Positions 6,825-52,021 of a DNA stretch of 64,000 nucleotides are shown here, in pieces. Both the position numbers and the translations under genes were made by a program. The notes under the pieces are model-generated. The model was not told where the DNA came from and did no database searches. It saw only the letters and a program-made list of their open reading frames with translations. Source of the stretch: Candidatus Omnitrophota bacterium (GTDB taxonomy: Bacteria; Omnitrophota; Gorgyraeia; Gygaellales; Profunditerraquicolaceae). How positions within the stretch are numbered: position 1 is the stretch's first letter; each line of letters starts with the position of its first letter. The stretch covers positions 68,554 to 132,553 of the forward strand of contig JAUSED010000008.1 of the NCBI GenBank assembly GCA_030650425.1, written 5' to 3'.

Positions 6825-7559
6825 ATGTCAAAACACTATGGTTGGTTACCGGACATTCCGGATAAGCGCGATTTACTCTACAGCGCCATCAAGCCCCGCG
6901 TCAGGCTTCTTCCTAAAGTTGACTTACGCGCAAGCTGTTCGCAAGTTGAACAGCAGGGAAAATTAGGCAGCTGTACCGCCAATGCCCTTGCAGGGAACAT
7001 TGAATATCTGGATAATCTTGTTGATTCAACTTATACCGATGTCAGCCGTCTTTTTATTTATTATAACGAAAGAGAGCTTGAATACACGCAAGATTATGAT
7101 GCCGGGGCATCTTTGCGCGACGGTATAAAAACTTTGAGGAAAACCGGTTATTGCTGGGAGAAAACTTGGCCTTATAAAATCGCCTTATTTGATCAAAAGC
7201 CGCCGCTTCGCTGTTATGAAGAAGCCAAACAGCATTGTATCCAATCTTACCACCGAATTAATAATTTACTGGAGATGCTGGTTTGTTTGAGTCAAGGCTA
7301 TCCTTTTGTTTTTGGTTTTACCGTTTACGAAAGTTTTGAGAGCCTAGCCGTAAAACGCTCCGGCGTGGCGAATATGCCTAAAAGAGGAGAACGCGTTTTA
7401 GGAGGGCACGCGGTGATGGCAGTCGGCTACAATCAGCAAGAGAAGCGTTTTCTGGCGCGTAATTCCTGGGGGAGGCAATGGGGTAAGCAAGGTTATTTCA
7501 CCATGCCTTTTGAATATCTGGAAAGCTTAGCCGCCGATTTTTGGACGATACGGAAATAG
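6825..7559 (+). CDS. papain-like (C1 family) cysteine peptidase, cytoplasmic (no signal peptide)
   Basis: Catalytic-triad context: QGKLGSCTANA (Gln/Cys), GGHAVMAVGY (His), NSWG (Asn-Trp). 244 aa. Confidence 0.7.
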   Translation: MSKHYGWLPDIPDKRDLLYSAIKPRVRLLPKVDLRASCSQVEQQGKLGSCTANALAGNIEYLDNLVDSTYTDVSRLFIYYNERELEYTQDYDAGASLRDGIKTLRKTGYCWEKTWPYKIALFDQKPPLRCYEEAKQHCIQSYHRINNLLEMLVCLSQGYPFVFGFTVYESFESLAVKRSGVANMPKRGERVLGGHAVMAVGYNQQEKRFLARNSWGRQWGKQGYFTMPFEYLESLAADFWTIRK

Positions 7560-10218: not shown

Positions 10219-10235
10219 AATTATTGAGGAGACTT

Positions 10236-11267
10236 ATGCTTAGCCATAAAACTATTTTGATCACCGGCGGGACAGGGTCATTCGGTAAAAAAATGCTCCA
10301 GATTGTGCTTGCGCAGTATAAACCGAAGCGGCTTATCATCTTCAGCCGCGATGAGTTGAAACAATTCGAGATGGCCCAGAAGTGGGGTCCGCATAAATAT
10401 CCATCTCTTCAGTATGTTTTGGGAGATGTGCGGGATAGGGATCGTTTGATGAGTGTATTTAAAGGAGTTGATTATATTATCCACGCAGCCGCCTTAAAGC
10501 AGGTTCCGGCAGCAGAACGCAACCCGGAAGAATATATCAAGACTAACGTTCTGGGGGCGATGAATATTATCGATGCGGCAATCCAATGCAAGGTTAAGAG
10601 CGTTGTAGCTTTGTCAACTGACAAGGCCTGCAACCCGATCAATCTTTACGGGGCGACCAAGCTCTGTTCCGACAAGCTGTTTACGGCAGCAGGGTTTTTA
10701 GCCACAGAAAATGAAACGCGCTTTGCGGTTGTGCGTTATGGTAATGTTTTGGGCAGCCGTGGGTCGGTTGTGCCGTTTTTTAAGGAACGCCTGAAAACAG
10801 GTGTGTTGCCTATTACGGATGAACGGATGACTCGTTTTTGGATCACACTTGACCAGGCGGCTTATTTTGTTTTGGAATCATTAAAACGTATGAAGGGAGG
10901 CGAGATCTTTGTCCCGCGCATCCCTTCGATGAAGATTGTGGACCTTGCCAAGGCCATAGGGCCTAAATGTAAGCTTGAGGCTGTAGGTATCCGCCCCGGT
11001 GAAAAGATCCACGAGACTCTTATCAGCGAGGATGAGGCGCGTAATACCGTAATATTTAAGGATTGTTTTGTGGTTCAGCATAATGCCACGCTGCGTTCGG
11101 ATCTAGCCAAGGGTAAGGGACGGTTATCCCCCGAAGGATTTAGGTATAATTCTGGTGATAACGATATGTGGCTTTCTATCTCGGATCTTAAAAAACTGGT
11201 TGAGCAAGTCGCAGATGATTATGCCATTGAAGATTCCCGTTGGTCAATGGACGATTTACCGGAGTAA
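10236..11267 (+). CDS. pseB: UDP-N-acetylglucosamine 4,6-dehydratase (inverting), PseB/FlaA1/CapD short form
   Basis: TILITGGTGSFGK; YGATKLCSDKL; about 343 aa. ATG 10236 preferred (GAGGAG RBS 6 nt upstream) over TTG 10224. Confidence 0.75.
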   Translation: MLSHKTILITGGTGSFGKKMLQIVLAQYKPKRLIIFSRDELKQFEMAQKWGPHKYPSLQYVLGDVRDRDRLMSVFKGVDYIIHAAALKQVPAAERNPEEYIKTNVLGAMNIIDAAIQCKVKSVVALSTDKACNPINLYGATKLCSDKLFTAAGFLATENETRFAVVRYGNVLGSRGSVVPFFKERLKTGVLPITDERMTRFWITLDQAAYFVLESLKRMKGGEIFVPRIPSMKIVDLAKAIGPKCKLEAVGIRPGEKIHETLISEDEARNTVIFKDCFVVQHNATLRSDLAKGKGRLSPEGFRYNSGDNDMWLSISDLKKLVEQVADDYAIEDSRWSMDDLPE

Positions 11268-11305: not shown

Positions 11306-12271
11306 ATGAAAGAAGACCGGTTATTTGATCGTAAAGCATTAAAATTAGAATCCTTATCCCAAAGGAAGAGTGATTTGAATGTTTCCATAATCGCGCCGCT
11401 GGATTTTAACTTAAACTTTAAATCAAACGGTGACTTGAAAGAAATTAGTAAGCGGATAATCAGGGCCAAAAAGAAGAAAGCCTCCGTCATCTGGATGATA
11501 GGCGGGCACGTTATCAGGTCAGGGGTACAGCGATATATCATAGATTTGATGGAGAGAGGATATATTTCCTGTTTGGCGATGAACGGAGCCGGGATAATTC
11601 ATGATTATGAATTATCTCTTATTGGGGCAACTACCGAGAGCGTGGCTCAATATATCAAAGAAGGGCAGTTCGGTTTATGGAAAGAAACAGGAGAAATCAA
11701 TAATATAATCAATAGAAGCTACAAGCAGGGACTTGGTTTGGGCGAGGGAGTTGGTAAAGCTATTTACGAAGGCGATTTTCCTTATAAAGAGTTTAGCCTG
11801 TTGGCAGCAGGTTATCGTTTGAAGATTCCGGTAACGGTGCACGTCGGCATAGGTTATGATATTATCCATGAGCATCCTAATTGCGATGGCGCGGCAACGG
11901 GCGCTACTTCTTACCGCGATTTTCTAATCTTTACCAAATTAGTCAGCAATCTGGAAAGGGGAGTAATCATGAATTTCGGGAGCGCAGTAATGGCCCCGGA
12001 GGTATTCTTGAAGGCCTTGAGCATGGCAAGGAACGCTCTCCGCCGGAAGAAGAAGCAAATCAGGCATTTTACTTCAGTTGTCTGCGACCTTTATAATTTA
12101 CCGGCTAAATTTAACAAAGAACCGGATAAGCGCAATCCGGGTTATTATTTCAGGCCGTGGAAGACAATGCTCGTCAGGACAGTAGCTGACGGAGGAAGCT
12201 CTTTTTACGTCAAAGGCTGCCACGCGGATATTCTCCCTGCGCTTTGGAAAGAGATTAATGAAAATTCTTGA
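11306..12271 (+). CDS. deoxyhypusine-synthase-like (DHS-fold) protein of unknown function
   Basis: Segment VIWMIGGHVIRSGVQRYIIDLMERGYISCLAMNGAGIIHDYE matches the DHS core block [41 protein letters not shown]. 321 aa. Confidence 0.4.
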   Translation: MKEDRLFDRKALKLESLSQRKSDLNVSIIAPLDFNLNFKSNGDLKEISKRIIRAKKKKASVIWMIGGHVIRSGVQRYIIDLMERGYISCLAMNGAGIIHDYELSLIGATTESVAQYIKEGQFGLWKETGEINNIINRSYKQGLGLGEGVGKAIYEGDFPYKEFSLLAAGYRLKIPVTVHVGIGYDIIHEHPNCDGAATGATSYRDFLIFTKLVSNLERGVIMNFGSAVMAPEVFLKALSMARNALRRKKKQIRHFTSVVCDLYNLPAKFNKEPDKRNPGYYFRPWKTMLVRTVADGGSSFYVKGCHADILPALWKEINENS

Positions 12272-12734
12272 AATCGACAGTTTGGCAAAGACAATTAAAG
12301 GCCTGAAGGCTTCCGGAAAAAAGGTTGTCCTCTGTCACGGCTGTTTTGACCTTATGCACCCCGGACATATTAAATATTTTCAAGCCGCTAAAAAAATGGG
12401 GGATATTCTTGTTGTAACGGTTACCCCTGATATTTATATTGATAAAGGGCCGGGGAGGCCGGTATTTAACCAGCAATTACGGGTTGAATCAATCGCCGCC
12501 CTTGAATGCGTTGATTATGTAGCGCTAAATCAGTGGTCCACGGCAGAAGAAACCTTGAGGTTATTAAGGCCTGATATATATGTTAAAGGGCAGGAATTCG
12601 AAGGGCTTCAAGATAAGACTGGGAAACTCCAGAAAGAATTAAAAGTTATTCAGGAAGTCGGAGCCGAAATAAGGTTTACTCATGAGGTGGTATTTTCTTC
12701 AACCAGATTAATTAATAATAACCTTAAAAAATAA
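12258..12734 (+). CDS. cytidylyltransferase-like nucleotidyltransferase (HldE/RfaE domain II-like; heptose-1-phosphate adenylyltransferase family)
   Basis: VVLCHGCFDLMHPGHIKYF; 158 aa stand-alone domain. Confidence 0.7.
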   Translation: MKILEIDSLAKTIKGLKASGKKVVLCHGCFDLMHPGHIKYFQAAKKMGDILVVTVTPDIYIDKGPGRPVFNQQLRVESIAALECVDYVALNQWSTAEETLRLLRPDIYVKGQEFEGLQDKTGKLQKELKVIQEVGAEIRFTHEVVFSSTRLINNNLKK

Positions 12735-12735
12735 A

Positions 12736-14268
12736 ATGAAAAACACGCCCAAAAGTAAAATATTATTGCTTGATGATTTAATTAATAAAGTAAAGAGCCT
12801 TAAGGCTTCCGGAAAAGTTGTAGTCCAGAGCCACGGAATCTTTGACTTAATCCATCCCGGAGTGATCGAACATCTTAAATCAGCTAAGGAACGAGGAGAT
12901 GTGTTGATAGCTACCGTTATCACGGATAAAGATGTGCGTAAGGGTCCGGGTAGGCCGATCTTCTCCGGAAATTTAAGGGCAGAAAATGTAGCGAGCCTTT
13001 CTATGGTTGATTATGTTTGCGTGGTAGGTGATGAAACACCTTTTGAATGCGTAAAAAGAATAAAACCGAATATTTTTGCCAAAGGAAAATCAATAAAAGA
13101 TCTTGATAATGAAATTAACAATAAGATATTTGAAGAAGTAAAGGAGCTTTATTTCGGAAAGGTAAGGATCCATGAAACCGGTGGCTTCTCTTTAAGCTCT
13201 TCGGAAATAATCAATAATTTTATTGATATCTATCCTGAAGAGGTAAAAAGCTTTCTGAAAGACTTCTCCAGGAAATACAGTTTTAAGGAGATAAGCAGAA
13301 AGATAAACAGCTTAAATAAATTAAAGATACTTCTTGTTGGTGACGGCATAATAGATGAGTATCATTATTGCGAGGCTATGGGTAGGTCAGCTAAGGCTCC
13401 GCTGGTGGTAAATAAATATATAACCCATGAGATATTTGCCGGAGGCGCTTTTGCCATTGCGAACCATTTGGCGGGATTATCAGGAAACATTCATTTAGTC
13501 TCTTTACTGGGAAACGAACCAGCCAGGGAGGATTTTATTCGCTCCAACTTGAAACCGAATGTAACTACGAAGTTTTTTTACCGTAAAGACGGCTCTACAA
13601 TAGTAAAAAAGAGGTACATAAACCAGTATCAGAACCAAAAACTTTTTGAAGTTAATTACCTAAGCGACTCTTATATTAATGGTGGTTTGGAATCAGGGAT
13701 AATTAAATACTTGAATAGCGTGGCAGCGTCTTATGATTTAATCTTGATTTCCGATTTTGGCCATGGTTTTATTACGAATCGGATAATCGAAGCAATTCAG
13801 GATTCTAAGGTTAAGTTTGCGGTGAATACCCAGACAAATGCCGCTAATGCCGGCTTTAACATGATTACCAAGTATCGTAAGCCGTTTTATGTTTGCTTGG
13901 ATGAACCGGAATTAAGATGGGCAGCGCAAGAGAGATTCGCCGATATTGAATCTGTAGCTAAGAAAATCCTGGAAACCGTCCATGCCTCTAACCTTGTTGT
14001 AACCTTGGGTAAAAGAGGCTCATTTGGGATAAATAATAGAGGCCAGATAAATTATACTCCTATTTTTTCTTCAAAAGTTATAGATACTGTAGGTGCTGGC
14101 GACGCTTTTTTTGCTTTTACCGCGCCTTGTGTTGCTCAGAAGATGCCTCTGGATTTAGTTTCTTTTATCGGAAATGCCGTAGGGGCCTTAGCAGTTCAGA
14201 TCGTTTGTAACAAAAGACCAATTGAAAAATATGAACTCCTTGAGTTTATCCACGCGCTAATGAAGTAG
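12736..14268 (+). CDS. bifunctional nucleotidyltransferase (N-terminal) / PfkB-family sugar kinase (C-terminal); HldE-like with reversed domain order
   Basis: N-terminal VVVQSHGIFDLIHPGVIEHL (paralogue of the upstream gene). C-terminal DTVGAGDAFFAFTA ribokinase/PfkB motif. 510 aa. Confidence 0.7.
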   Translation: MKNTPKSKILLLDDLINKVKSLKASGKVVVQSHGIFDLIHPGVIEHLKSAKERGDVLIATVITDKDVRKGPGRPIFSGNLRAENVASLSMVDYVCVVGDETPFECVKRIKPNIFAKGKSIKDLDNEINNKIFEEVKELYFGKVRIHETGGFSLSSSEIINNFIDIYPEEVKSFLKDFSRKYSFKEISRKINSLNKLKILLVGDGIIDEYHYCEAMGRSAKAPLVVNKYITHEIFAGGAFAIANHLAGLSGNIHLVSLLGNEPAREDFIRSNLKPNVTTKFFYRKDGSTIVKKRYINQYQNQKLFEVNYLSDSYINGGLESGIIKYLNSVAASYDLILISDFGHGFITNRIIEAIQDSKVKFAVNTQTNAANAGFNMITKYRKPFYVCLDEPELRWAAQERFADIESVAKKILETVHASNLVVTLGKRGSFGINNRGQINYTPIFSSKVIDTVGAGDAFFAFTAPCVAQKMPLDLVSFIGNAVGALAVQIVCNKRPIEKYELLEFIHALMK

Positions 14269-14271
14269 GAT

Positions 14272-14850
14272 TTGGATATGAAAAAAGATATAGGAAAATA
14301 CCATAAACGTTTTTTAAAGCTGATCGATTCTATTATAGCCACGGATTGCCGTAATAAAGATATCGATTTTCTTTTCGGCATTGAGATCGCCTGCAATTTA
14401 ATTAAAAAACAATCAAAAAAAAACAGTAAGATCTTTTTTGTCGGAAATGGCGGAAGCGCTGCTATTGCAAATCACGCTGCGATTGATTTTATGAAAAATT
14501 TGGGATTAAGGGCACATTCTTTCAGCGATAGTTCGCTATTAACCTGCATTAGTAATGATTTTGGATACGAATATGTTTTTGCTAAACCAATTGAGTTTTT
14601 TTCTGACAAAGAGGATGTACTAGTTACTATTAGTAGCTCTGGTAAGTCTAAAAATATACTAAAAGCAGTCGAGATTGCGGAGTCAAAAGGCGTTGATATC
14701 ATTACTTTATCAGGGTTTGATTTGAATAATCCCTTGCGCTCAAAGGGCGTTTGTAATTTTTATGTTCCCTCTAAAGAATACGGCCTTGTAGAAGTGGCGC
14801 ATCAATACATTTGTCACTATATCGCGGATATTCTAATGAAGCATAAATAA
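14272..14850 (+). CDS. gmhA: SIS-domain sedoheptulose-7-phosphate isomerase (GmhA-like)
   Basis: IFFVGNGGSAAIANHAAIDF...VLVTISSSGKSKNIL; 192 aa. Confidence 0.75.
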   Translation: MDMKKDIGKYHKRFLKLIDSIIATDCRNKDIDFLFGIEIACNLIKKQSKKNSKIFFVGNGGSAAIANHAAIDFMKNLGLRAHSFSDSSLLTCISNDFGYEYVFAKPIEFFSDKEDVLVTISSSGKSKNILKAVEIAESKGVDIITLSGFDLNNPLRSKGVCNFYVPSKEYGLVEVAHQYICHYIADILMKHK

Positions 14851-14852
14851 AA

Positions 14853-15920
14853 ATGGATAAATTCAAAATAGATAGCCATAAATTAATGTACCACGTGGAT
14901 CGTCTTTCAGATTGGCATGCCGGAAAGAATATCTATCCTATCTACATTGAAGTAGGTCCTTCGGGAGCCTGCAATCACCGTTGCGTGTATTGCGCGCTTG
15001 ACTTTATGGAGTATCAGCCACGCTTCCTTAAAACCGAGATCTTTTTGGAGCGCTTATCCGAATTCGGCGTTAAAGGCGTTCGAAGCATGATGTTCGCTGG
15101 CGAAGGCGAGCCATTCTTGCACAAAGATATAGCCGAGATCGCTGTACATACGAAAAAGGCTGGTATAGATGTCGCATTCACTACGAATGGGACTCTAATG
15201 AAAAGGGATATTGCTGAAAAGATCCTGGGGGTGACGGAATGGATCAAGATCAGCATTAATGGTGCAACAGCCGGTACATATGCCAAAATTCATCGGACAA
15301 CAGAGAATGATTTTCATCGTTTAATCAATAATTTGAAAGAGGCAGTCAATCTCCGGCGCAAGAACAATTATAGTTGTACCATCGGCATGCAGCTTCTATT
15401 GTTACCGGATAATTACCACGAGGCCGTCTCTTTGGCGCGCCTGGCTAGAGATATCGGATTGGATTATTTGGTGATCAAGCCGTATTCTCAGCATCCGCAG
15501 AGTAAAACTAATATTTATAGCAATATTAAATATAGCGATTATTTTTTCCTGCAGGATGAGTTACTTAAAGAGAATACGGCGGATTTTCAGGTTATTTTTC
15601 GTATAAATACAATGAAGAAATGGGACAATGGCCAGAAACCTTATAATCGCTGTATTGCCCAGCCGTTTTGGTCGCATATCGACGCGGGCGGAAATGTATG
15701 GGGTTGCAGCGCGTTCTTGAATGTCGAACGGTTCTTGTATGGCAACATCTATGAACAGACTTTTCAGGAGATTTGGGAGGGTAAAAAACGTTTGGAATCG
15801 CTGCATTGGGTTGAAGGGTACATGGATGCTACCGGTTGCCGTCTGAACTGTAGAATGGATGAGGTGAACCGGTACTTATGGGAATTAAAGATCCCACCAG
15901 AGCATGTGAATTTTATTTGA
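14853..15920 (+). CDS. radical SAM protein (with C-terminal Cys-rich SPASM/twitch-like region)
   Basis: CNHRCVYC (CxxxCxxC); later Cys cluster WGCSAF...GCRLNC. 355 aa. Confidence 0.7.
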   Translation: MDKFKIDSHKLMYHVDRLSDWHAGKNIYPIYIEVGPSGACNHRCVYCALDFMEYQPRFLKTEIFLERLSEFGVKGVRSMMFAGEGEPFLHKDIAEIAVHTKKAGIDVAFTTNGTLMKRDIAEKILGVTEWIKISINGATAGTYAKIHRTTENDFHRLINNLKEAVNLRRKNNYSCTIGMQLLLLPDNYHEAVSLARLARDIGLDYLVIKPYSQHPQSKTNIYSNIKYSDYFFLQDELLKENTADFQVIFRINTMKKWDNGQKPYNRCIAQPFWSHIDAGGNVWGCSAFLNVERFLYGNIYEQTFQEIWEGKKRLESLHWVEGYMDATGCRLNCRMDEVNRYLWELKIPPEHVNFI

Positions 15921-15944
15921 TATTAATATGAAAAAAGGATGTTT

Positions 15945-16787
15945 ATGCCGTTATCGATAGAAGAATTGGAAGTTAAAGCTCGCAAAGTTCGTCAAGAGAT
16001 TTTTAAGATGATCTGTGGCGCAGGCGGCGGGCATATCCCGGCTTGTTTATCCATCGTCGAAATTTTAGTTACGCTTTACAACGGTGTGCTTAGGGTTAAT
16101 CCTGGCGGGCCTCGCGATCCCGGTCGTGATCGATTCATTTTGAGTAAAGGGCACGGCGGTGTCGCGCTTTATGCCATATTGGCGGATAAAGGATTTCTTG
16201 ACCCTCGGCTTTTGTTAACCCATGGAAAGAAAGGAACTATTCTCGGTGGGCATCCGGATATGCATAAGGTCTCGGGGATCGAGGCTTCCACAGGAGCTCT
16301 CGGGCACGGGCTCCCTTTTGGCGCCGGTGTTGCGTTGGCAGCGAAAATAGACGCTAAAGATTATCGCGTATTTGTTCTTGTAGGAGACGGGGAATGCCAG
16401 GAGGGGAGTATTTGGGAAGCCGCGCTTTTTGCGCCTCAAATGAGACTCGATAATCTTACAGTAATTGTGGATCACAACAAGCTGCAAGCTATGGGCAGTT
16501 TAGACGATATTATCGGGTTATCTCCCTTTGCAGATAAATGGAAGGTTTTTGGTTGGGCAGTGGAAGAGGTTGATGGCAATAATATCAGTGATCTCCGCAA
16601 TACTTTTGGCCGGCTTCCTCTGAAGCCTGGCCGGCCAACTTGTATTGTCGCGCATACGCTCAAAGGAAAGGGAATTTCGTTTATGGAGAATGCGCCGATT
16701 TGGCACTATCGGATGCCAAATCCCGAAGAGATGAAGATGGCATGTGCAGAACTAGGATTGGCATTTGAAGATGGAGTTATCGAATGA
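15945..16787 (+). CDS. transketolase, N-terminal (TPP-binding) subunit
   Basis: Split transketolase N half: GHGG...LVGDGECQEGSIWEA. AAGGA RBS 6 nt upstream of ATG 15945. Confidence 0.8.
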   Translation: MPLSIEELEVKARKVRQEIFKMICGAGGGHIPACLSIVEILVTLYNGVLRVNPGGPRDPGRDRFILSKGHGGVALYAILADKGFLDPRLLLTHGKKGTILGGHPDMHKVSGIEASTGALGHGLPFGAGVALAAKIDAKDYRVFVLVGDGECQEGSIWEAALFAPQMRLDNLTVIVDHNKLQAMGSLDDIIGLSPFADKWKVFGWAVEEVDGNNISDLRNTFGRLPLKPGRPTCIVAHTLKGKGISFMENAPIWHYRMPNPEEMKMACAELGLAFEDGVIE

Positions 16788-17704
16788 GGAATGCTTACTT
16801 ATCGGCGTTATATGATTTAGCGAAAGAGAATAAAAATATAATGGCGTTGATTTCTGATAACGGCGCGATTGTTTATGATCAATATCGTGCGGATTTTCCT
16901 GAACAGTATCTTAACTGCGGGATTTCTGAAGCAAATATGGTCGGGGTTTCCGCCGGATTAGCGTCGTGCGGTAAGATCCCTTTTGCGTATACGATCGCGA
17001 ACTTTATAGTGTATCGCGCGTTTGAGCAGATCCGTAATGACGTCTGTCTTCAAAAAATGAATGTTAAATTAGTCGGAATTGGCGTTGGTTTTGTGTATAG
17101 CATTTTGGGGCCTACGCACCATACAACGGAAGATATCGCGTTGATGCGGGCGCTGCCGAATATGACTATTTTCTCTCCGTGTGACCCGCGAGAGGCGAAA
17201 AAGGTTACTTATGCCGCTGCTCAAATCAATGGCCCGGTTTATATCCGCCTGGCAACCGGCGGGACTCCGAAGGTTTATGAAAAAGATTATGATTTTCAGG
17301 TCGGCAGAGGCGTTGTCTTAAGAGAAGGCCGTGACCTAACAATGATTTCGACCGGTAGTATTTTGCTGGAGGCCTTGCAAGCGGCTGACCAGCTAAAGGC
17401 AGAGGGCGTAGGTGTACGGTTTATCAATATGCATACATTAAAGCCAATGGATCAGGCGATTATTCTAAAAGCCGCACGGGAGACAAGCCGTATTCTGATC
17501 GTTGAAGATCAAAATTTACAGGGAGGATTAGGTTCGGCGGTTGCCGAAACTTTGGCTGATAATGCAGTCGTCTGTAGATTCAAACGTTTAGGCTTACAAG
17601 ATGTTTTTACGGAAGGCTATGGTTCGTACCAGGATTTAAAGGAAATTAACGGGATCGCGAAGAAAAATATTAAGGATGCCGCTAAAGGCCTGTTGGAGGC
17701 GTAA
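16784..17704 (+). CDS. transketolase, C-terminal (pyrimidine-binding/transketolase C) subunit
   Basis: Split transketolase C half. ATGA overlap with the N subunit. Confidence 0.8.
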   Translation: MRNAYLSALYDLAKENKNIMALISDNGAIVYDQYRADFPEQYLNCGISEANMVGVSAGLASCGKIPFAYTIANFIVYRAFEQIRNDVCLQKMNVKLVGIGVGFVYSILGPTHHTTEDIALMRALPNMTIFSPCDPREAKKVTYAAAQINGPVYIRLATGGTPKVYEKDYDFQVGRGVVLREGRDLTMISTGSILLEALQAADQLKAEGVGVRFINMHTLKPMDQAIILKAARETSRILIVEDQNLQGGLGSAVAETLADNAVVCRFKRLGLQDVFTEGYGSYQDLKEINGIAKKNIKDAAKGLLEA

Positions 17705-17705
17705 G

Positions 17706-18371
17706 ATGGGACAATTATTGAATATTATCACTCCGCTGCATACAAGAACTAAACGTAATTATCTGGAACGTATGCAGAATGAAAAAGTATATTGTTCAGA
17801 AGTCGCCCGAAAATATGGAAAAGATTTCTGGGATGGCGACCGGCAGTTTGGTTATGGAGGATATAAATATGACGGCCGCTGGTCAGTTGCCGTGGAGGCG
17901 TTAGCCAGGCAGTATGGATTAAAGACGGATGCCCGTATTTTGGATGTCGGCTGCGGCAAAGGGTTTATGCTCTATGAGTTTAAAAATATTTTAAAGGATT
18001 GTACCGTCAAAGGTTTTGATATCTCCCATTATGCCGTTAAAAACGGCAAAGAGGAAATCAAGGAAGATTTATTCTGCCATAAAGCGGAAGCGGCGCCGTA
18101 TCCTTTTAAAGATAAAGAATTTGATTTGGTTATCTCCACGGGTACATTGCATAATTTGCGGGTTTATGATTTAAAGCAGGCGCTTCAGGAAATTGAGCGC
18201 GTTGGAAAGAATAAGTATATTTTGGTTGAAGCCTTCCGTAACATAGAGGAGCTTTTTAATCTTCAATGCTGGGCGTTGACCTGCGAACTGTTTTTCCGTC
18301 CCGAGGAGTGGGTCTGGTTATTCCAGGAATTCGGCTATACCGGAGATTATGAATTTATCTACTTTGAATAA
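17706..18371 (+). CDS. class I SAM-dependent methyltransferase
   Basis: ILDVGCGKGFMLYEF (motif I GxGxG); LVISTGTLHNL. ATG 17706 used, not the overlapping upstream extension. Confidence 0.7.
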   Translation: MGQLLNIITPLHTRTKRNYLERMQNEKVYCSEVARKYGKDFWDGDRQFGYGGYKYDGRWSVAVEALARQYGLKTDARILDVGCGKGFMLYEFKNILKDCTVKGFDISHYAVKNGKEEIKEDLFCHKAEAAPYPFKDKEFDLVISTGTLHNLRVYDLKQALQEIERVGKNKYILVEAFRNIEELFNLQCWALTCELFFRPEEWVWLFQEFGYTGDYEFIYFE

Positions 18372-18380
18372 AAGAAAAAA

Positions 18381-19463
18381 ATGAAGAAAGAAGCCAGCCT
18401 TTTATATACTAAAATGAAGATTTTCCATTTTAAGGATAAAATCGATTCTTTGACTCGGAATAATCCTTTGATTATGCCTCCCTTGCATATTCGGATAAAG
18501 CCGACGAATGCCTGTAATCATAATTGTACTTATTGCGCTTATCGGGTGGATAACCTGCAACTTGGTAAAAACATGGAGACAAGAGATTCTATTCCGAAAG
18601 AAAAGATGCTCGAGATAATCGAAGATTTAAGGGAGATAAAAGTTAAAGCTGTTACTTTTAGCGGCGGAGGCGAGCCTTTTTGCTATCCCTATCTGTTTGA
18701 CGCGGTATTAAAGCTTATTAAATCAAAGATTTCCTTTGCTTCGCTAACTAACGGTTCTCTGCTCTCGGGAGATATTGCCGAACTCTTCAGCCGTTACGCT
18801 ACTTGGGTAAGGATTTCTATTGACGGCTGGGATGATAAGAGTTATTCCATCTACCGCCGGGTGCGCGAGGGCGAATTCAGTAAAGTTATACATAATATCA
18901 AGTGTTTTAAAAAAAATAGAGGAAGATGTTATTTAGGGGTGAGTATTGTTGTTAATAAGCATAACGCTCCCCATATATATGACCTTGTGATGCTTTTACG
19001 CGATAGCGGCACTGATAGCGTGAAGATATCGCCTTGTATTATCAGTAACAGTGGAAAAAGCAATAATGCTTATCATAGCAGTCTTTATAAAACAGTTAAA
19101 GGCCAAATTGCTAAGGCATATAGTAGGTGCGCTAAAAAAGGATTCGAGATTTTTGATTCATATCATACCCAACTGGAAAGTTTTGCCAAGTCTTACCATT
19201 GGTGTCCTTATTTACAGATTCTTCCGGTGATAGGAGCTGATTTAAATATCTATCCATGCCAAGATAAAGCATATAATCTTGATGAGGGATTGGTTGGTTC
19301 GATAAAAAAGGAAAGATTCAAGGATTTTTGGTTTTCAAATAAAAACAAGTTTTTTAAGGTAAATCCTGCAAAGGTTTGCAATCATCACTGCGTTGCAAAT
19401 GAGAAAAATAAGATGATTCTGGAATATTTAAATACGGACGCTAAGCATTTATTTTTCGTTTAG
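18381..19463 (+). CDS. radical SAM protein with C-terminal Cys-rich (SPASM-like) region; paralogue of 14853-15920
   Basis: CNHNCTYC; C-terminal CPYLQ...CQDKAYN...CNHHC. Confidence 0.7.
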   Translation: MKKEASLLYTKMKIFHFKDKIDSLTRNNPLIMPPLHIRIKPTNACNHNCTYCAYRVDNLQLGKNMETRDSIPKEKMLEIIEDLREIKVKAVTFSGGGEPFCYPYLFDAVLKLIKSKISFASLTNGSLLSGDIAELFSRYATWVRISIDGWDDKSYSIYRRVREGEFSKVIHNIKCFKKNRGRCYLGVSIVVNKHNAPHIYDLVMLLRDSGTDSVKISPCIISNSGKSNNAYHSSLYKTVKGQIAKAYSRCAKKGFEIFDSYHTQLESFAKSYHWCPYLQILPVIGADLNIYPCQDKAYNLDEGLVGSIKKERFKDFWFSNKNKFFKVNPAKVCNHHCVANEKNKMILEYLNTDAKHLFFV

Positions 19464-25333: not shown

Positions 25334-26587
25334 ATGCAAAATCTCCATAAAAGGATAAATTTGATTAGGAAGATTTATTTGTTGAGTAAAAAAATTTGTT
25401 TCTTCATTTTGGCTATGCCTTTTATTATGGTTATGTCAATATTACGGCCGTTTATCTTAGTACGTTTAGGGCTTGTTGATATTGGGCGCTTTGGTGGCGT
25501 GTATGACGCCGAATGGTATTTGGCTGAACGGGCTGCGGGTATTCATCAAAAAAGAAGTTTTGATCTATTTTTTTTCTTTCGCTCTACAGGGATTATCTCT
25601 AATCAGTTTTGGGAAAAATTATGGAAACGGACATTAAATGTTTTTCCTTTTTGGCGGCTTGGGTACACTTTATATACATTATGCCATAAATTTCAGGTGC
25701 TTCATGTACATATTATACCCCTGGATGATGTCAGGCCAATTTATGGAAAAGAATATAAGGGATTTATAACACATCATTGTATTTTAAAGCATTACCAGCC
25801 CCCTGTTTTATTTACCCCTGAGGAAGAATTATTGGGGAAAGACGCTTTGGAGCATTTTGGTATTTCGCAGAGCAAGCCTTTTATATGTTTTCATGCAAGG
25901 GATTCTGCTTATTTGGAAAGGATAGCGCCTAATTGCGATTGGCGGTATCACGGTTATAGAGATTCGGATATTAAAAATTATATTCCGGCGGCAGAAGAAC
26001 TGATGCGCCGCGGTTATTATACCGTCAGAATGGGGGTTTTTGTAAAAGAGAAGTTATCTCTTGAAAATCCTTTGTTTATCGATTATGCCATGAATGGCAA
26101 GCGGACAGAATTTTTGGATATATATTTGGGAGCAAAATGCCGTTTCTTTGTCTGTTCTGATACCGGCATATCTATGGTCCCTGAAGTTTTTAGGAGGCCG
26201 TTGGTCTATGTAAACTGGGTGCCTTTACTACGCTGCCCCGCATTCTATGTCCATAATGCTTTATTGATTCCTAAAAAGTTTATTTTAAAAAAAGAAAAAC
26301 GCGAGCTGACATTTCGGGAGATTATTTTTTCACCAATAGGAAGCACGTTTGAAAAGGGAGTTTTTGACCGGATGGGGATAGAGTTAATAGAGAATACGCC
26401 GGAGGAAATTACAGCTGTAGCCTTGGAAATGGATGAACGTTTTAATGGTAGATGGAAAACAACAGATGAAGATGAGGAGTTGCAGCGGCGTTTTTGGAAA
26501 CTTTTTGAGTCGTACGAATTAAATAATCCCGGCGTTAGAATAGGCGCTGAATTTTTACGCCAGCACAAATATTTATTGGATAATTAA
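25334..26587 (+). CDS. putative GT-B-like glycosyltransferase of uncharacterised family (TIGR04372-like), paralogue A
   Basis: CRFFVCSDTGISMVPEVFRRPLVYVNWVP, a GT-B C-terminal-like block shared with the next gene. Confidence 0.35.
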   Translation: MQNLHKRINLIRKIYLLSKKICFFILAMPFIMVMSILRPFILVRLGLVDIGRFGGVYDAEWYLAERAAGIHQKRSFDLFFFFRSTGIISNQFWEKLWKRTLNVFPFWRLGYTLYTLCHKFQVLHVHIIPLDDVRPIYGKEYKGFITHHCILKHYQPPVLFTPEEELLGKDALEHFGISQSKPFICFHARDSAYLERIAPNCDWRYHGYRDSDIKNYIPAAEELMRRGYYTVRMGVFVKEKLSLENPLFIDYAMNGKRTEFLDIYLGAKCRFFVCSDTGISMVPEVFRRPLVYVNWVPLLRCPAFYVHNALLIPKKFILKKEKRELTFREIIFSPIGSTFEKGVFDRMGIELIENTPEEITAVALEMDERFNGRWKTTDEDEELQRRFWKLFESYELNNPGVRIGAEFLRQHKYLLDN

Positions 26588-26595
26588 TAACCCTT

Positions 26596-28188
26596 ATGGC
26601 GATTGTTAAGAAAATTTATTTATTTTTTAAGCATCAGGCCGATGATCTTCAAGAAGGCGGCCTGTGCGTCTTTTTTAGAAAAGTTAAAAAGTTTCCGCAA
26701 CTCTTCCTCTTGCGGATTTTTGCTCCGTTGGCGGTTAAGTGGGGTATTCATTGGCCAAAGGCGTATCTTTTTATGGCCTATAAGTTTATAAAACAATATA
26801 AGACTACGCGTGTAAGCCATCGCGTAAATAGAAAAGAATTAGAAGCCCTTTCCGAGAAGTCTATAAATTATATGAAGAAATATATTGGATATAAACCAAT
26901 CGCGGCTAATTTATCTGACTGGATTAACGCAAACAATGGATTGAGTTTCTTTCTCTGGGATAAGGGCGATATTAATGAAACGATTCAAAGTATAAATAGA
27001 GTCATGGAGATACAAAATACAATATGCCGAGAGCATCAATTGGATAAATTGGATATCGTTTTTATCCCGCGGGCATTTGCGATAGGGGCAATCGGTCCTT
27101 ATGAGAATGTTTACTCATATATTAAGGCAGGAATCCTTGGCCTGCGTCCTCCTCAAAAGATGATTCTGCTGCTGGAGCCCGACGCGCAAGTTAACAACAG
27201 GCATTATTTAAATTATTTTAAGCAATACATTTCAATTATAACGGATACCAGGCTTATTGAGCTGCTTTCTCCTTTAGAGAAGTTTTTGGCTGTTCCTTTG
27301 GGTTTAATTATGCCTATTTACGGGAAAGGCTTTATAAGCCATCTTTCTTTTGGTTTAATTCAAGAGCAATGGCATAAAGAGAAGCGCACGCCGTTGCTCA
27401 CTCTTTTAAATACAGATCGCCAACGCGGCTGGCAGCATTTAATATCTTTGGGGGTTCCTCAGGGGGCCTGGTTTGTGTGTTTGCATGTAAGAGAATCGGG
27501 ATGGCGCGATGAGGGGTCTATTTCAGAAGATTACCGGAATGCCGACATCAATACCTACATACCGGCGATAAAGGCGATTACTTCTGCCGGCGGTTGGGTT
27601 ATTCGTATAGGTGATCCGGGGATGAAGCCATTGCCTGAAATGTCTCAGGTTATTGATTATGCGCATAGTAATATTAAAAGCGATTGGATGGATGTGTTTT
27701 TATGCGCAGAATGCCGGTTTTTTATCGGGACATCTTCCGGGCCATTTACTTTGGCGGTAGCCTTTGGAGTCCCTGTTTTGGTAACGAATCTGCTGCCCGG
27801 GCATGCCCTATATCATCTATCCAGTAAAGATCTATTTCTTCCGAGGCTTTGCTGGTTAGAAGATGAAAAACGTTATCTTAATTTTAGAGAGTTAATCGCT
27901 CCACCGGTAGGAATGGCCAGTTCAAAAACTTCTTTTGAGAAACTGCATCTTAATATTGTGCCTAATGATGCCGAGGAAATTAAGGATTTAGTTATAGAGA
28001 TGTTAGAAAAATGTGCTGGCAAATTAAAATATAGCGATGAAGAAGAAAATTTACAGAGATGTTTTAAAATGATGGCTGCCGAATGCGGCAAACTTTACGG
28101 TGACGAAAGGATCGTTTGTAATGCGCGCATAGGAAGATATTTTTTATCTCGACATGCGCCACTCTTATGGAGGGGACAAAATGATTGA
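26596..28188 (+). CDS. putative GT-B-like glycosyltransferase of uncharacterised family (TIGR04372-like), paralogue B (530 aa)
   Basis: CAECRFFIGTSSGPFTLAVAFGVPVLVTNLLP, paralogous to the preceding gene. Confidence 0.35.
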   Translation: MAIVKKIYLFFKHQADDLQEGGLCVFFRKVKKFPQLFLLRIFAPLAVKWGIHWPKAYLFMAYKFIKQYKTTRVSHRVNRKELEALSEKSINYMKKYIGYKPIAANLSDWINANNGLSFFLWDKGDINETIQSINRVMEIQNTICREHQLDKLDIVFIPRAFAIGAIGPYENVYSYIKAGILGLRPPQKMILLLEPDAQVNNRHYLNYFKQYISIITDTRLIELLSPLEKFLAVPLGLIMPIYGKGFISHLSFGLIQEQWHKEKRTPLLTLLNTDRQRGWQHLISLGVPQGAWFVCLHVRESGWRDEGSISEDYRNADINTYIPAIKAITSAGGWVIRIGDPGMKPLPEMSQVIDYAHSNIKSDWMDVFLCAECRFFIGTSSGPFTLAVAFGVPVLVTNLLPGHALYHLSSKDLFLPRLCWLEDEKRYLNFRELIAPPVGMASSKTSFEKLHLNIVPNDAEEIKDLVIEMLEKCAGKLKYSDEEENLQRCFKMMAAECGKLYGDERIVCNARIGRYFLSRHAPLLWRGQND

Positions 28189-29593
28189 GCCAAAGAATAG
28201 GTTAAAACGTTTAATTAATATTTATCTGGGATTGTTTGTTCTCTTGAGCCTTTTTGCAGTAGTGTACACCGTTTTTACAAACTATGCTGCGCATGAAAAA
28301 ATTCTCAACAAATCTTTAATCGCAACTCTTTCTTTTGCTATTGTCACGGCAGCGCTGTTTTTTTTGGACGCGAAAAAGAGAGCCAATGCCGCGTTAATGC
28401 ATTTTTCGATACTTTTCTCTCTATTTTTAATCAATCTGTTGTTTGAAATTCCGTTAGATCAAGGCAACATTGAACGCGCGGCAAAGCGCACAGGCATTAA
28501 ATGGGATAAAAGAAATAAATATGAGGTTGTAGATGCTCTTAGGAAAAAGGATATTACGGCATTTCCTACTGCATTTTTTCCGGCTTTTGTCGGCGAGGAG
28601 GGTTTCTTTACGGAGAAATTCGGGCTTAAATTGGATAACCTTTTTCCGCTAAGCGGAGTTGCCAATGTTGAAACGGTGCTATCCAATGAAACCGGGGAAT
28701 GGATAATTTATAAGTCGGATAGATATGGATTTAACAATGACGATAGTGTTTATGAAAAAAGCGGCCGGCCTATTCTTATTGTGGGTGATTCTTTTGCGCA
28801 AGGCATAAGCGTTCCTCAAAAAGATAGTGTTGCCGGTAATCTTTTACATAGAGGTTACAAAGCTATCAGTTTGGGCACAGGAGGCAGCGGGCCGCTAATT
28901 GAACTGGCCGCAATAAAAGAGTATGGGCCTTATCTAAAACCTAAAATAATATTGTGGTTCTATTATGAAGGGAACAATTACCTCCATTTACCTAAGGAAT
29001 ATAGGTATCCTGCGTTGAACAAGTATCTTGAGAAGGGATATTCGCAGCACTTAATTAATAGACAGCCGGAGATAGATCAATTTTGGGCCGATTTTTTTGC
29101 TAAAGCAGAAAAATACCTTAAAAACGAAAAGGAGAGTGTTGTATTCTGGAGGAAGGCAAGCTCCAAGAAGCTGCTTAAGGGCTTAATTCTAAGAATGGTT
29201 ACATTACACAATATCAGAAAGATTGCAGGGGTTTCAAGGCATAGCTATCTTTTTGAAGGGGTAGATAGGTCGGGTTTTGACACAACGGAGCCAATGTTCA
29301 GGAATGTTATGAAAATAGCTAAGGAGGAGGCGGAGGGCTTAGGCGCCAAACTATATTTTGTATATCTCCCGAACTATGCAAGTTTTTTTAACCAGAAAAT
29401 TCTGCTATCGCCAAGTTCCCAGACAGTCCGGAAGATTATAGCTGAATTGGATATCCCTGTTATTGATTTTTATAAATGCTTAAAGGATACCGGAGATCCG
29501 AACGAGTTTTTTCCGTTTCGGCTAGGCGGCCATTATAGCGTTAAAGGGTATAATTTATTAGCGAATCTTATTGAAGAGGAGGCGTTAAAGTGA
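28181..29593 (+). CDS. membrane-anchored SGNH/GDSL-type hydrolase or acyltransferase
   Basis: Two N-terminal TM helices, then ILIVGDSFAQG (GDS block). GGAGGGG RBS before ATG 28181. Confidence 0.5.
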   Translation: MIEPKNRLKRLINIYLGLFVLLSLFAVVYTVFTNYAAHEKILNKSLIATLSFAIVTAALFFLDAKKRANAALMHFSILFSLFLINLLFEIPLDQGNIERAAKRTGIKWDKRNKYEVVDALRKKDITAFPTAFFPAFVGEEGFFTEKFGLKLDNLFPLSGVANVETVLSNETGEWIIYKSDRYGFNNDDSVYEKSGRPILIVGDSFAQGISVPQKDSVAGNLLHRGYKAISLGTGGSGPLIELAAIKEYGPYLKPKIILWFYYEGNNYLHLPKEYRYPALNKYLEKGYSQHLINRQPEIDQFWADFFAKAEKYLKNEKESVVFWRKASSKKLLKGLILRMVTLHNIRKIAGVSRHSYLFEGVDRSGFDTTEPMFRNVMKIAKEEAEGLGAKLYFVYLPNYASFFNQKILLSPSSQTVRKIIAELDIPVIDFYKCLKDTGDPNEFFPFRLGGHYSVKGYNLLANLIEEEALK

Positions 29594-32376: not shown

Positions 32377-34521
32377 ATGGCGGTTAATTCAAGGAAAAAA
32401 ATTTTAATTACAGGCGCGAGCGGAGTTTTAGGCAGCAACCTCACGTTTTTCTTTAAAGATTATTTTGATGTTATCGGAGTTTATCATTCGCATCCTGTTT
32501 CTATGGCTGCGGCAGAAATGGTTCAGGCGGACCTTTGTGATGCGAGAATAGTTACAGGCTTGGTAGTAAAGTATAAACCAGATGTTATTATTCATTGTGC
32601 CGCGCAGGTGGATGTAGATGCCTGTGAGGAGAATCCTAAGCTTGCGCATCGAAAGAATGTGGAGATGACGCGTAATATTGTTAATGCCATAAGAAACCGG
32701 AAGGCCAAATTAGTTTTCATTTCAACGGATCTTGTTTATGGCCCATCAAACAGGCCTCATAAAGAAGAGGATGTTCTTTTGCCATGCAATGAATATGGCC
32801 GCACCAAAGTTTTGGCGGAGGAAGTTGTCCTCAAGAGAAAAGGCGCACTTGTTTTAAGAACAAATTTTTTTGGATGGAGTGTTGGTGGAAGAAAGAGCCT
32901 TGGGGAATGGGTGATTGAATCTTTGAGCCAGAATGTTCGAATCCAGGGGTTTAAAGATGTCCATTTTTCTTCTATCTATACGTTTGATCTAGCGGAAATT
33001 CTAAGTCGGTGCTTACGAAAGAATTTAAGCGGAGTGTTTAATCTGGGATCAGCCACTTCTTTATCTAAATATGAGTTTTTGAGAAGTATAGGGAATTCTC
33101 TATCTCTCAACGTCTCTTTGGTTGATAAGATCTCTGTTGATGATTTACCTTTACGCGCGGCGCGCAACAAGAATACCATAATGGATATCCGCAAAATCTC
33201 TATGGCGCTGGGTATAAAACTTCCTACTCTGGAAGATTCTCTTGAGCACTTTGTGGTTCATTATCGTAAAGGGATGTCTCGAGTAATTTGTGGGTCAGAG
33301 GCCTGTTATCCCGAATTAGACTATATTCCTTACGGACGGCAGTGGATTGATGAAGAAGATATTAACGCGGTTGTTCAAGTGCTTAAATCGCCCAATTTAG
33401 CTCAAGGCCCAAAAATTATTGAGTTTGAGTATGCTCTTGCGCAATATGCTGGCGCGGAATATTGCGCGGCGCTTAATTCAGGAACATCCGCCCTTCACGC
33501 GGCGTGTCTTGCTATTGGCATTAAGAAGGGCGACGAAGTTATCACGTCCGCGAATACTTTTGTGGCATCGTCCAATTGTGTTGTTTATTGCGGGGGGACT
33601 CCTATTTTCGCGGATATAGACCTTAAAACATACAATCTTTCTCATCTTGATGTTGAAAAAAAGATTACAGCAAGGACCAAAGCTGTTATTCTTGTTCATT
33701 TTGCCGGGCAGAGCTGTGATATGCAGGTTCTTTGTTCAGTGGTGCGTAAAAAAGAAAAGCAATTTGGACGAAAAATCTATATTATCGAAGATGCTTCTCA
33801 TGCTTTGGGGTCTTGTTATAAGAAGGCCCCGGTAGGAAATTGCCGGTTTTCAGATATGGCGGTTTTAAGTTTTCATCCGGTTAAACATATTACAACTGGG
33901 GAAGGAGGAGCTGTTTTAACGAATAGCAAAGAGATGTATCGCAAGGTCTGTTATTTTCGTTCTCATGGGATCACCGGATTCCCAGAGGAACTCACGAATC
34001 AACCAGAGGGATTTGAGGAAGTGCGCAATAGAGGGCTAATGAAAAAACCATGGTATTATGAACAGCTTTATCTTGGGTATAATTATCGCATCACCGATAT
34101 TCAGTGTGCTTTGGGTATATCTCAACTACGTAAATTAGCCATGTTTAAGGAGCGCCGCCGGCAGATTTGGGATTTTTATAATCGTTGTTTTAAAAATGAA
34201 GGACTTTTAGTTATTCCTTATGAAAGTCAGGATGCGGATAGTAATTTTCATCTGTATGTGGTATTGATTGATTTCGTGGCTCTAAATAAAACCCGGACAG
34301 AAGTAATGCTGGCATTAAAAGATTTTGGCGTCGGTACCCAAGTTCACTATATTCCGGTGTATACACATCCATTTTATCGCGATCGATTTAACGGGACTTG
34401 GGGAGATTGCCCTAATGCTGAAAAATATTATAAAAAATGTCTTTCTCTTCCTATTTTTCCAGCAATGAAAGATAGGGATGTCAGAAAAGTAATTGAGTCT
34501 ATTTATAAGGTCCTAAATTAG
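32377..34521 (+). CDS. fusion protein: RmlD-like NAD(P) reductase domain (N-terminal) + DegT/DnrJ/EryC1 PLP-dependent sugar aminotransferase (C-terminal, PseC-like)
   Basis: N-terminal ILITGASGVLGSNL...FISTDLVYG...YGRTKVLAE. C-terminal IIEDASHALGS, FHPVKHITTGEGGAV, SNFHLYVV. 714 aa. Confidence 0.7.
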   Translation: MAVNSRKKILITGASGVLGSNLTFFFKDYFDVIGVYHSHPVSMAAAEMVQADLCDARIVTGLVVKYKPDVIIHCAAQVDVDACEENPKLAHRKNVEMTRNIVNAIRNRKAKLVFISTDLVYGPSNRPHKEEDVLLPCNEYGRTKVLAEEVVLKRKGALVLRTNFFGWSVGGRKSLGEWVIESLSQNVRIQGFKDVHFSSIYTFDLAEILSRCLRKNLSGVFNLGSATSLSKYEFLRSIGNSLSLNVSLVDKISVDDLPLRAARNKNTIMDIRKISMALGIKLPTLEDSLEHFVVHYRKGMSRVICGSEACYPELDYIPYGRQWIDEEDINAVVQVLKSPNLAQGPKIIEFEYALAQYAGAEYCAALNSGTSALHAACLAIGIKKGDEVITSANTFVASSNCVVYCGGTPIFADIDLKTYNLSHLDVEKKITARTKAVILVHFAGQSCDMQVLCSVVRKKEKQFGRKIYIIEDASHALGSCYKKAPVGNCRFSDMAVLSFHPVKHITTGEGGAVLTNSKEMYRKVCYFRSHGITGFPEELTNQPEGFEEVRNRGLMKKPWYYEQLYLGYNYRITDIQCALGISQLRKLAMFKERRRQIWDFYNRCFKNEGLLVIPYESQDADSNFHLYVVLIDFVALNKTRTEVMLALKDFGVGTQVHYIPVYTHPFYRDRFNGTWGDCPNAEKYYKKCLSLPIFPAMKDRDVRKVIESIYKVLN

Positions 34522-52008: not shown

Positions 52009-52021
52009 ACAGAATTATCTT

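Follow-up and report, generated by a model that had tools for sequence, protein, structure and literature searches.

In this study, we analyze a 64,000-nucleotide stretch of DNA from a Candidatus Omnitrophota bacterium (assembly GCA_030650425.1, contig JAUSED010000008.1, positions 68,554 to 132,553 of the forward strand), referred to here as the window, and in particular one gene at positions 11306–12271 on its + strand, which encodes a GSU2086-family protein (the target) with a predicted Rossmann-like fold of the deoxyhypusine synthase (DHS) and LOR/SDH type. The open reading frame (ORF) starts with ATG and specifies 321 amino acids. Both this ORF and the block VIWMIGGHVIRSGVQRYIIDLMERGYISCLAMNGAGIIHDYE (residues 61–102), in which an earlier reading of the letters (the original prediction) had seen the conserved core of DHS, are real. 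Also as that reading had it, the gene lies in a glycan locus, namely a long co-directional sugar-modification operon which contains GDP-mannose dehydratase and fucose-synthase-like genes, a genuine PseB, many methyltransferases, radical S-adenosylmethionine (SAM) enzymes, aminotransferases and an ATP-binding cassette (ABC) exporter; terminator-like sites in the intergenic stretches were looked for by a consensus scan, and none was found. The PseB gene (inverting UDP-N-acetylglucosamine 4,6-dehydratase; 10224–11267, + strand; TIGR03589, 473 bits against a cutoff of 408) ends 38 bp upstream of the target and is near a target homolog in only one of 80 loci, so that it is not a recurrent partner.

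The end of the target gene overlaps the start of the next gene by 14 bp. That gene (12258–12734) encodes a standalone, 158-residue nucleotidyltransferase resembling domain II of RfaE with an intact HxGH motif (HPGH; TIGR02199, 110 bits, below the cutoff of 181.5). It is followed by a 510-residue fusion of a degenerate nucleotidyltransferase-like domain (HPGV, not HxGH) with a PfkB sugar-phosphate kinase resembling domain I of RfaE (12736–14268; TIGR02198, 124 bits, below the cutoff of 345), and by a 192-residue GmhA-like SIS sugar-phosphate isomerase (14272–14850; TIGR00441, 100 bits, below the cutoff of 209). Further downstream lies an accessory tailoring set: a radical SAM/SPASM enzyme (14853–15920), which recurs in 22 of 62 loci (those flanked by 1.5 kb or more of sequence on each side, a partner being counted when it lay within 4 kb); a split transketolase-like thiamine diphosphate (ThDP) enzyme, recurrent downstream of the cassette (15939–17704, with its N part at 15939–16787 and its C part at 16784–17704); and a class I SAM methyltransferase (17676–18371) with a second radical SAM enzyme (18381–19463), which are kept with the cassette in many loci. 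All of these genes are on the + strand.

The target matches the NF052581 model, 'GSU2086 family protein', with 395.6 bits (cutoff 250), its residues 7–315 covering positions 2–300 of the 301 in the profile. This family is named after GSU2086 of Geobacter sulfurreducens and is catalogued without a functional assignment, and our literature searches found no publication on its function. It is large: a search of clusters at 90% identity returned at least 8000 significant candidates, 1423 clusters at 50% identity match it at E ≤ 1e-10, and at least 514 GTDB species carry a member with 54–83% identity to the window protein. Conservation is very high, at 55–70% identity from phylum to phylum and into the archaea. 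Its range includes Omnitrophota, Desulfobacterota, Nitrospirota, Nitrospinota, Planctomycetota, Armatimonadota, Chloroflexota, Acidobacteriota, Elusimicrobiota and archaea of the Methanoperedens type. Two branches can be told apart. In the branch of the window protein, H188, H190, C193, K286, T287 and H306 are invariant (81 of 81 sequences), whereas the other branch, recognizable by the motif HYRPxxNV, lacks K286 and gives the best score on the NF052581 model (448 bits). Across both branches, in an alignment of 52 sequences down to 35% identity, H68, H99, D100, E102, T109, E111, H179, D185 (with E counted as D at this position), D205, E232, K236, D261, R283 and R291 are kept in at least 49 sequences, and H99, D100, E102 and T109 in 51 or 52.

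The resemblance to DHS on which the original prediction was built is genuine and beyond chance; it is weak and local in sequence and, in the predicted structure, clear at the level of the fold. The DHS profile PF01916 reached 19.6 bits (E = 6e-4), aligning residues 47–102 with positions 19–75 of 288, and so fell below its gathering score of 27; the prediction had named the lack of a significant hit to this very profile as its refutation, and formally that is the outcome. TIGR00321 (DHS) gave 22.4 bits against a cutoff of 304, and the NCBIfam equivalog models for DHS, homospermidine synthase and guanidino-polyamine synthase gave 15–22 bits against cutoffs of 300–500 (15–20 bits against 338–500 for DHS and homospermidine synthase models other than TIGR00321). 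All of these scores fall far short, and the alignment takes in only some 55 residues of the N-terminal part; therefore, the target is not a member of the DHS/homospermidine synthase family. The fold assignment was right and the family assignment wrong. The match to PF21570 (ArgZ-like_C_2nd) is somewhat better, at 30 bits just above its gathering score of 27 (residues 45–131 on positions 1–87 of 213). However, TIGR00300 scored 17.3 bits against a cutoff of 410.8 and a profile scan found no Saccharop_dh_N domain (PF04455) in the target, which is thus not a member of the LOR/SDH-type ornithine cyclodeaminases and does not have their two-domain architecture. Sequence searches of the PDB aligned only residues 23–109, to ArgZ, AgrE or Sulfolobus DHS, with E values of 0.02–0.4. 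Comparison of two family alignments with human DHS by hhalign (the human sequence used is self-consistent for K329, H288 and W327) recovered the N-terminal block only, at E values of 0.35–0.49, with residues 65–96 opposite 103–134 in the alignment at 0.35. An extension of this alignment forced past the block had a plainly unreliable register and was discarded, and residues 170–321, used as a profile against PDB sequences, gave chance matches only (RNase A, FANCM).

A structure predicted from the diverse 52-sequence family alignment (predicted local distance difference test score, pLDDT, 96.6; predicted template modeling score, pTM, 0.93) was compared with the PDB by Foldseek. All 50 matches listed were LOR/SDH-ArgZ/AgrE cyclodeaminases or DHS, and an earlier first model gave the same picture. 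The best was the LOR/SDH protein 3c2q (E = 2e-9, template modeling (TM) score about 0.52), and AgrE and ArgZ followed at 2e-8 to 7e-7. Archaeal, trypanosomal and human DHS were matched with a probability of 1.00 and E values of 7e-8 to 3e-5 (8put, 7e-8; 7cmc, 4e-7; 1dhs, 8e-6), the cyclodeaminase domains scoring slightly better than DHS. Overall, TM scores were 0.45–0.59 and identities 11–16%. The structural check proposed with the original prediction therefore came out in its favor as far as the fold is concerned: the model has the three-layer Rossmann-like fold of DHS, and the conserved Gly-rich loops (G66, G94, G183, G225 and G304) speak for a putative nicotinamide adenine dinucleotide (NAD) pocket. 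The target and ArgZ also have in common an H-D-x-E motif followed by G..T after strand beta2 (VHDIE...GT; alignment to ArgZ residues 473–541). We conclude that the GSU2086 family is a third, functionally uncharacterized branch of the superfamily that comprises the DHS/homospermidine synthases and the LOR/SDH-type (ArgZ/AgrE) ornithine cyclodeaminases. In the model, every polar residue conserved in both branches lies where one of the six parallel strands ends on its C-terminal side or where the next helix begins, and this placement indicates that they would form one active-site cleft.

With regard to the catalytic lysine, the outcome was divided. K286 is in the same beta5–beta6 connector as the catalytic lysine of DHS (human K329) and is invariant in the branch of the window protein, but the other branch has E, V, Q, T or R at this position, and no alignment pairs K286 with K329, the alignments to human DHS being non-significant. 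It had been suggested that the enzyme transfers a spermidine-derived aminobutyl group onto a sugar, which in a DHS-type reaction would pass through a lysine-imine intermediate. The fold and K286 are in keeping with such chemistry, as is D100, which in our own, unverified mapping of the N-terminal alignment takes the place of E137 of DHS. However, the models for DHS and homospermidine synthase are far below their cutoffs, neither polyamine nor eIF5A genes are among the annotated recurrent neighbors, which are heptose-pathway or glycan genes, and the heptose intermediates of the pathway described below would be expected to carry no amino group. Aminobutyl transfer is thus an unsupported guess that we regard as very improbable, and the evidence favors the other option in the original prediction, a new substrate for the fold.

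The nature of this substrate is suggested by the genes around the target homologs (X). An RfaE-domain-I-like PfkB kinase is the most constant partner (49 of the 62 loci), followed by an RfaE-domain-II-like nucleotidyltransferase (32 loci, directly adjacent in 21), a GmhA-like SIS isomerase (31) and a HAD hydrolase of 285 residues (16). Three arrangements recur: type A, X-NT-[NT*-kinase]-SIS-radical SAM (NT, nucleotidyltransferase), in this window, Methanoperedens, Nitrospirota and others; type B, [NT-kinase]-X-SIS-radical SAM, in Planctomycetota and Desulfovibrionaceae, including an annotated Solidesulfovibrio plasmid; and type C, HAD-X-kinase(-SIS), in Chloroflexota, Acidobacteriota, Gemmataceae and Armatimonadota. 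Moreover, natural fusions occur, namely SIS-X (P0123), X-CTPt (nucleotidyltransferase), HAD-X, X-PfkB (P0139) and a DUF89 phosphatase-CTPt-X protein, and there are tandem X-X proteins (P0126, P0146). Since X is fused to each of the four classical enzyme types (SIS isomerase, kinase, phosphatase and nucleotidyltransferase), it substitutes for none of them and therefore represents an extra activity.

Two readings of these arrangements can be weighed at this point. The first is that X uses NAD+ as an adenylyl donor (heptose-1-phosphate + NAD+ giving ADP-heptose and nicotinamide mononucleotide) and so replaces the nucleotidyltransferase in HAD-X-kinase cassettes. It would account for the type C cassettes (HAD-X-PfkB), which never have an RfaE-II-like nucleotidyltransferase within 4 kb, but elsewhere X coexists with, and is even fused to, a nucleotidyltransferase with intact HxGH, and we know of no precedent for such a reaction in a DHS-like fold; we consider it scarcely credible. 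The second is that X has no catalytic role of its own and binds nucleotides as a partner of the heptose kinase, to which it would be attached as a sensor of NAD(H) or ADP-heptose with a regulatory or scaffolding function. The link with the kinase is the tightest of all, by adjacency as well as by fusion, and the tandem duplicates would also fit a subunit of this kind. On the other hand, the retention of about 14 polar residues in nearly all sequences, all at strand ends, is a pattern typical of catalysis, and the target is at least as conserved as most of its catalytic partners, so that a purely regulatory role appears improbable.

Several features of these cassettes deserve mention in their own right. 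Each cassette has exactly one nucleotidyltransferase domain with intact HxGH (the window, L001, L003, L005 and L013 as against L018, L025, L030, L061, L029, L032 and L037): if a standalone HPGH/HIGH enzyme is present, the kinase-fused copy has degenerated to HPGV/HPGI, and if the fused copy is alone, it has kept HxGH. The order of the NT and kinase domains is opposite to that in E. coli HldE. The tailoring set (radical SAM/SPASM enzyme, split ThDP enzyme, methyltransferase and second radical SAM enzyme; 14853–19463 in the window) accompanies the cassette in Omnitrophota, Methanoperedens archaea, Planctomycetota and Desulfovibrionaceae, with identities between lineages of up to about 55–65% (L003, L008, L018–L034, L030, L082). 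The radical SAM/SPASM copies directly downstream of the cassette are 46–63% identical, and among cassette-linked copies the methyltransferase reaches 65% and the second radical SAM enzyme 56–63%. This suggests that cassette and tailoring set make up a pathway that moves by horizontal transfer and yields an unusual heptose, branched or extended. On the Solidesulfovibrio carbinolicus plasmid pDCAR1 (L082, 8673–13522), the cassette adjoins genes for a NeuB-family synthase, pseF and an acylneuraminate cytidylyltransferase; together with PseB in the window, these nonulosonic-acid genes hint that a heptose derivative and a sugar of the pseudaminic-acid type end in the same glycan. On a Chloroflexota plasmid (L083, 180–10585), HAD-X-kinase-SIS comes directly after deoC, a sugar ABC transporter and two Gfo/Idh/MocA oxidoreductases, a context that looks catabolic or salvage-related; a catabolic role was rejected because this context was not found in the other type C loci. 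Loci in which X is free of heptose-pathway partners include L042, L046, L063 (Fervidibacter) and others from Armatimonadota and Planctomycetota, and the Fervidibacter gene follows an Abhydrolase_7/glucuronoyl-esterase-like gene.

The context of the HYRPxxNV branch points to the same pathway. In 80 metagenomic loci of this branch (L084–L163), a GT9 enzyme scoring high enough for heptosyltransferase II (141 bits, cutoff 134.6) is near the gene in 35, and the neighboring kinase passes the cutoff for heptose-7-phosphate kinase (395 bits, cutoff 345). A DUF3108 protein of about 287 residues is encoded directly upstream in 44 of the 80 loci, usually after the GT9 heptosyltransferase gene, and may be another uncharacterized component of the lipopolysaccharide (LPS) core. 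According to published annotations, the G. sulfurreducens operon runs gmhB (GSU2084), hldE (GSU2085), GSU2086 and gmhA (GSU2087), and transposon sequencing (Tn-seq) has recorded a common phenotype, with electrode-growth defects on insertion of −3.1 for hldE, −3.2 for GSU2086 and −3.7 for gmhA (PMC5585712). A general role as a replacement for the GmhB phosphatase was considered and rejected, given the fusions and adjacency of X to HAD and DUF89 phosphatases and its occurrence alongside gmhB in Geobacter. Four independent lines, namely the neighborhoods, the fusions, the context of the second branch and the Geobacter operon with its phenotype, thus point the same way, and we hold with high confidence that the target is a dedicated extra enzyme of the heptose-nucleotide pathway.

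The classical ADP-heptose pathway consists of five enzymes, among them the epimerase HldD, a short-chain dehydrogenase/reductase (SDR), and it is this enzyme that is absent from all of these cassettes. A probe with the validated E. coli HldD sequence found no bona fide HldD, either in the window or among the 160 loci fetched. The SDRs that do lie near cassettes score below the HldD cutoff (TIGR02197); those following the cassette in L060 and L067 were considered as HldD and rejected as GalE-like and below this cutoff. The target itself matches no SDR model and so is not a TIGR02197 member. In E. coli, hldD sits beside the heptosyltransferase genes waaF and waaC, and the second branch of the family, likewise beside heptosyltransferase genes, occupies the same niche.

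Taken as a whole, the explanation that serves best, and to which we would give about an even chance, is that GSU2086-family proteins are cytoplasmic, dinucleotide-dependent enzymes of the heptose pathway that act as redox-neutral epimerases or isomerases. Already shown is that the target is an integral fifth component beside enzymes of the GmhA, HldE-kinase, GmhB and HldE-adenylyltransferase types, which lead from a ketoheptose phosphate to a nucleotide-activated heptose. The target would bind a dinucleotide, either NAD+ or a nickel-pincer analog, as a cofactor that is not consumed, and would oxidize its substrate transiently and then re-reduce it, so that epimerization or isomerization proceeds through a keto intermediate. 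The substrate may be a heptose phosphate or an NDP-heptose, and the job would be akin to that of the unrelated SDR HldD in E. coli. R283, R291, K236 and K/R71 are candidates for holding the sugar phosphate(s), and the cluster of His, Asp and Glu residues might supply acid-base catalysts or a metal site. In the window, the product would feed a glycan heavily tailored by the radical SAM enzymes, the ThDP enzyme and the methyltransferases. Both characterized branches of the superfamily recycle a dinucleotide, DHS and AgrE using NAD+ as a recycled hydride acceptor, and the target has retained the Gly-rich loops after beta1, beta2, beta3, beta4 and beta6, by which this fold lines its dinucleotide site, as well as the H-D-x-E motif; it is for these reasons that we suggest cofactor binding and a redox-neutral conversion. 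That the target is specifically a cofactor-recycling epimerase or isomerase is, nonetheless, a tentative assignment drawn from these relatives.

A number of observations speak against this explanation. Firstly, 13 of the 62 loci, Fervidibacter among them, have no heptose-pathway partner within 4 kb, and two Chloroflexota loci have a GalE/HldD-like SDR gene after the cassette. Secondly, the absence of HldD is a result on the window and the fetched loci, and the Tn-seq phenotype of GSU2086 could reflect a polar effect on gmhA. Thirdly, the proposed chemistry draws on an analogy with two distant relatives at 11–16% identity, and in the C-terminal half no similarity to the sequences of DHS or ArgZ could be detected, so that the NAD pocket is presumed to be retained. 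Lastly, six conserved His and several Asp/Glu residues resemble a metal site, which could indicate non-redox chemistry.

This last point is the starting point of the principal rival, in which the target is a metal-dependent, non-redox enzyme of the same pathway. Its ADP-binding cleft would accept ADP-heptose or a heptose (bis)phosphate, and the reaction would be either hydrolysis, with a phosphatase or pyrophosphatase serving in proofreading or recycling, or isomerization of heptose-7-phosphate by way of an enediol (aldose/ketose or C2). To our knowledge, all folds of the DHS/cyclodeaminase superfamily bind ADP-containing ligands, and H68, H99, H179, H188, H190, H306, D100, D185, D205, D261, E102, E111 and E232, combined with R283, R291 and K236, look like a metal-plus-phosphate site. 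Type A cassettes such as that of the window, where the closest HAD gene is 46 kb away, also have no nearby phosphatase gene. Nevertheless, the fusion or adjacency of X to HAD and DUF89 phosphatases and to the SIS isomerase, and the presence of both gmhB and gmhA in the Geobacter operon, mean that the target is not simply a missing phosphatase or isomerase, and we know of no hydrolase with a DHS-like fold. On balance, we find metal-dependent chemistry unlikely, while ranking it first among the alternatives to a redox-neutral, dinucleotide-dependent enzyme.

A variant keeps the role of redox-neutral epimerase or isomerase and exchanges NAD+ for a nickel-pincer nucleotide (NPN) or nickel-pincer adenine dinucleotide (NPAD), as in the TIGR00300 cyclodeaminases. 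The nearest structural relatives (3c2q and the TIGR00300 family) are named NPN-dependent by NCBIfam, the H-D-x-E motif is common to both, and the conserved His residues could ligate nickel. The nickel-pincer dinucleotide serves some ornithine cyclodeaminases, an NPAD-dependent one having been reported, and another nickel-pincer enzyme takes sugar substrates (PMC13524815). Set against this, none of LarB, LarC and LarE is among the annotated recurrent neighbor clusters, AgrE was crystallized with NAD+ (6lrg), and our literature searches found nothing that ties nickel-pincer enzymes, or DHS-like enzymes, to heptose. We give this variant a slim chance.

Other parts of the window also merit a brief description. 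A 244-residue homolog of papain-family (C1) cysteine proteases is encoded at 6825–7559 amid nucleotide-sugar genes, an odd place for a protease. Three consecutive large ORFs at 25334–29593 (417, 530 and 479 residues) have no Pfam match at E ≤ 1e-6 and may be novel glycosyltransferases or polymerases, and at 32377–34521 a single 714-residue protein combines RmlD-like reductase/epimerase and DegT/DnrJ/EryC1 sugar aminotransferase domains. The three ORFs that follow one another with slight overlaps at 48123–53872 are close in size (645, 675 and 663 residues) and may be paralogs. Essentially all substantial ORFs of the window are on the + strand, the guanine-cytosine (GC) skew is positive in 32 of 32 bins of two kb, and no tRNA genes or Rfam matches were found in the 64 kb.

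ADP-heptose biosynthesis, regarded as a closed pathway of five enzymes, is a target for antibiotic adjuvants and gives rise to an innate-immune signal (ADP-heptose and heptose-1,7-bisphosphate). A sixth protein, very widely distributed and strongly conserved, is tied genetically to this pathway and physically fused to its enzymes, with which it has a mutant phenotype in common in Geobacter. This means either an overlooked step or a non-homologous replacement of a known one. What is new here is the proposal of an unrecognized component of heptose biosynthesis and of a third functional branch of the superfamily with a new class of substrate; the family itself had already been catalogued. In its most specific form, in which the GSU2086 family is a new heptose-modifying class that combines the DHS/cyclodeaminase fold with a hydride shuttle on NAD+ or a nickel-pincer cofactor and epimerizes heptose in place of HldD, the proposal is speculative and somewhat unlikely to hold in full. 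If it did hold, this would be the first sugar or sugar-phosphate substrate for a superfamily so far known to act only on amines, and the family would stand in for HldD as a source of activated heptose, or of variants of it, in hundreds of bacterial lineages and some archaeal ones.

Compared with known systems, the target is like DHS and homospermidine synthase (1dhs, 7cmc, 8put) in its fold, as measured by the TM scores, and in the block beta1-loop-helix-beta2-'xxGG/NGAG'. It differs in the low identity, in that the surroundings of Lys329, His288 and Trp327 cannot be recognized in it, and in a gene context free of eIF5A and polyamine functions. The LOR/SDH-type cyclodeaminases (PF21570, TIGR00300; 3c2q, 6juy, 6lrg) provide the best structural match, have the elements G..H..G, H-D-x-E and G.T in common with it and, by analogy, probably also the use of a dinucleotide cofactor that is not consumed; their context is arginine and ornithine, whereas that of the target is sugar phosphates, and they have a Saccharop_dh_N domain that the target does not. 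HldD (RfaD), the ADP-L-glycero-D-manno-heptose 6-epimerase, is the functional analog that we propose from gene context, as a fifth ADP-heptose enzyme encoded beside heptosyltransferase genes that works by transient oxidation with a bound nicotinamide cofactor, although HldD is an SDR of entirely different fold and has no homology to the target. Finally, the NF052581 family is matched over its full length and has the same heptose-gene context. Within it, the branch of the window protein is divergent and pairs with sub-threshold GmhA and RfaE paralogs and with radical SAM and ThDP tailoring genes, whereas the top-scoring branch sits with genuine LPS-core genes.

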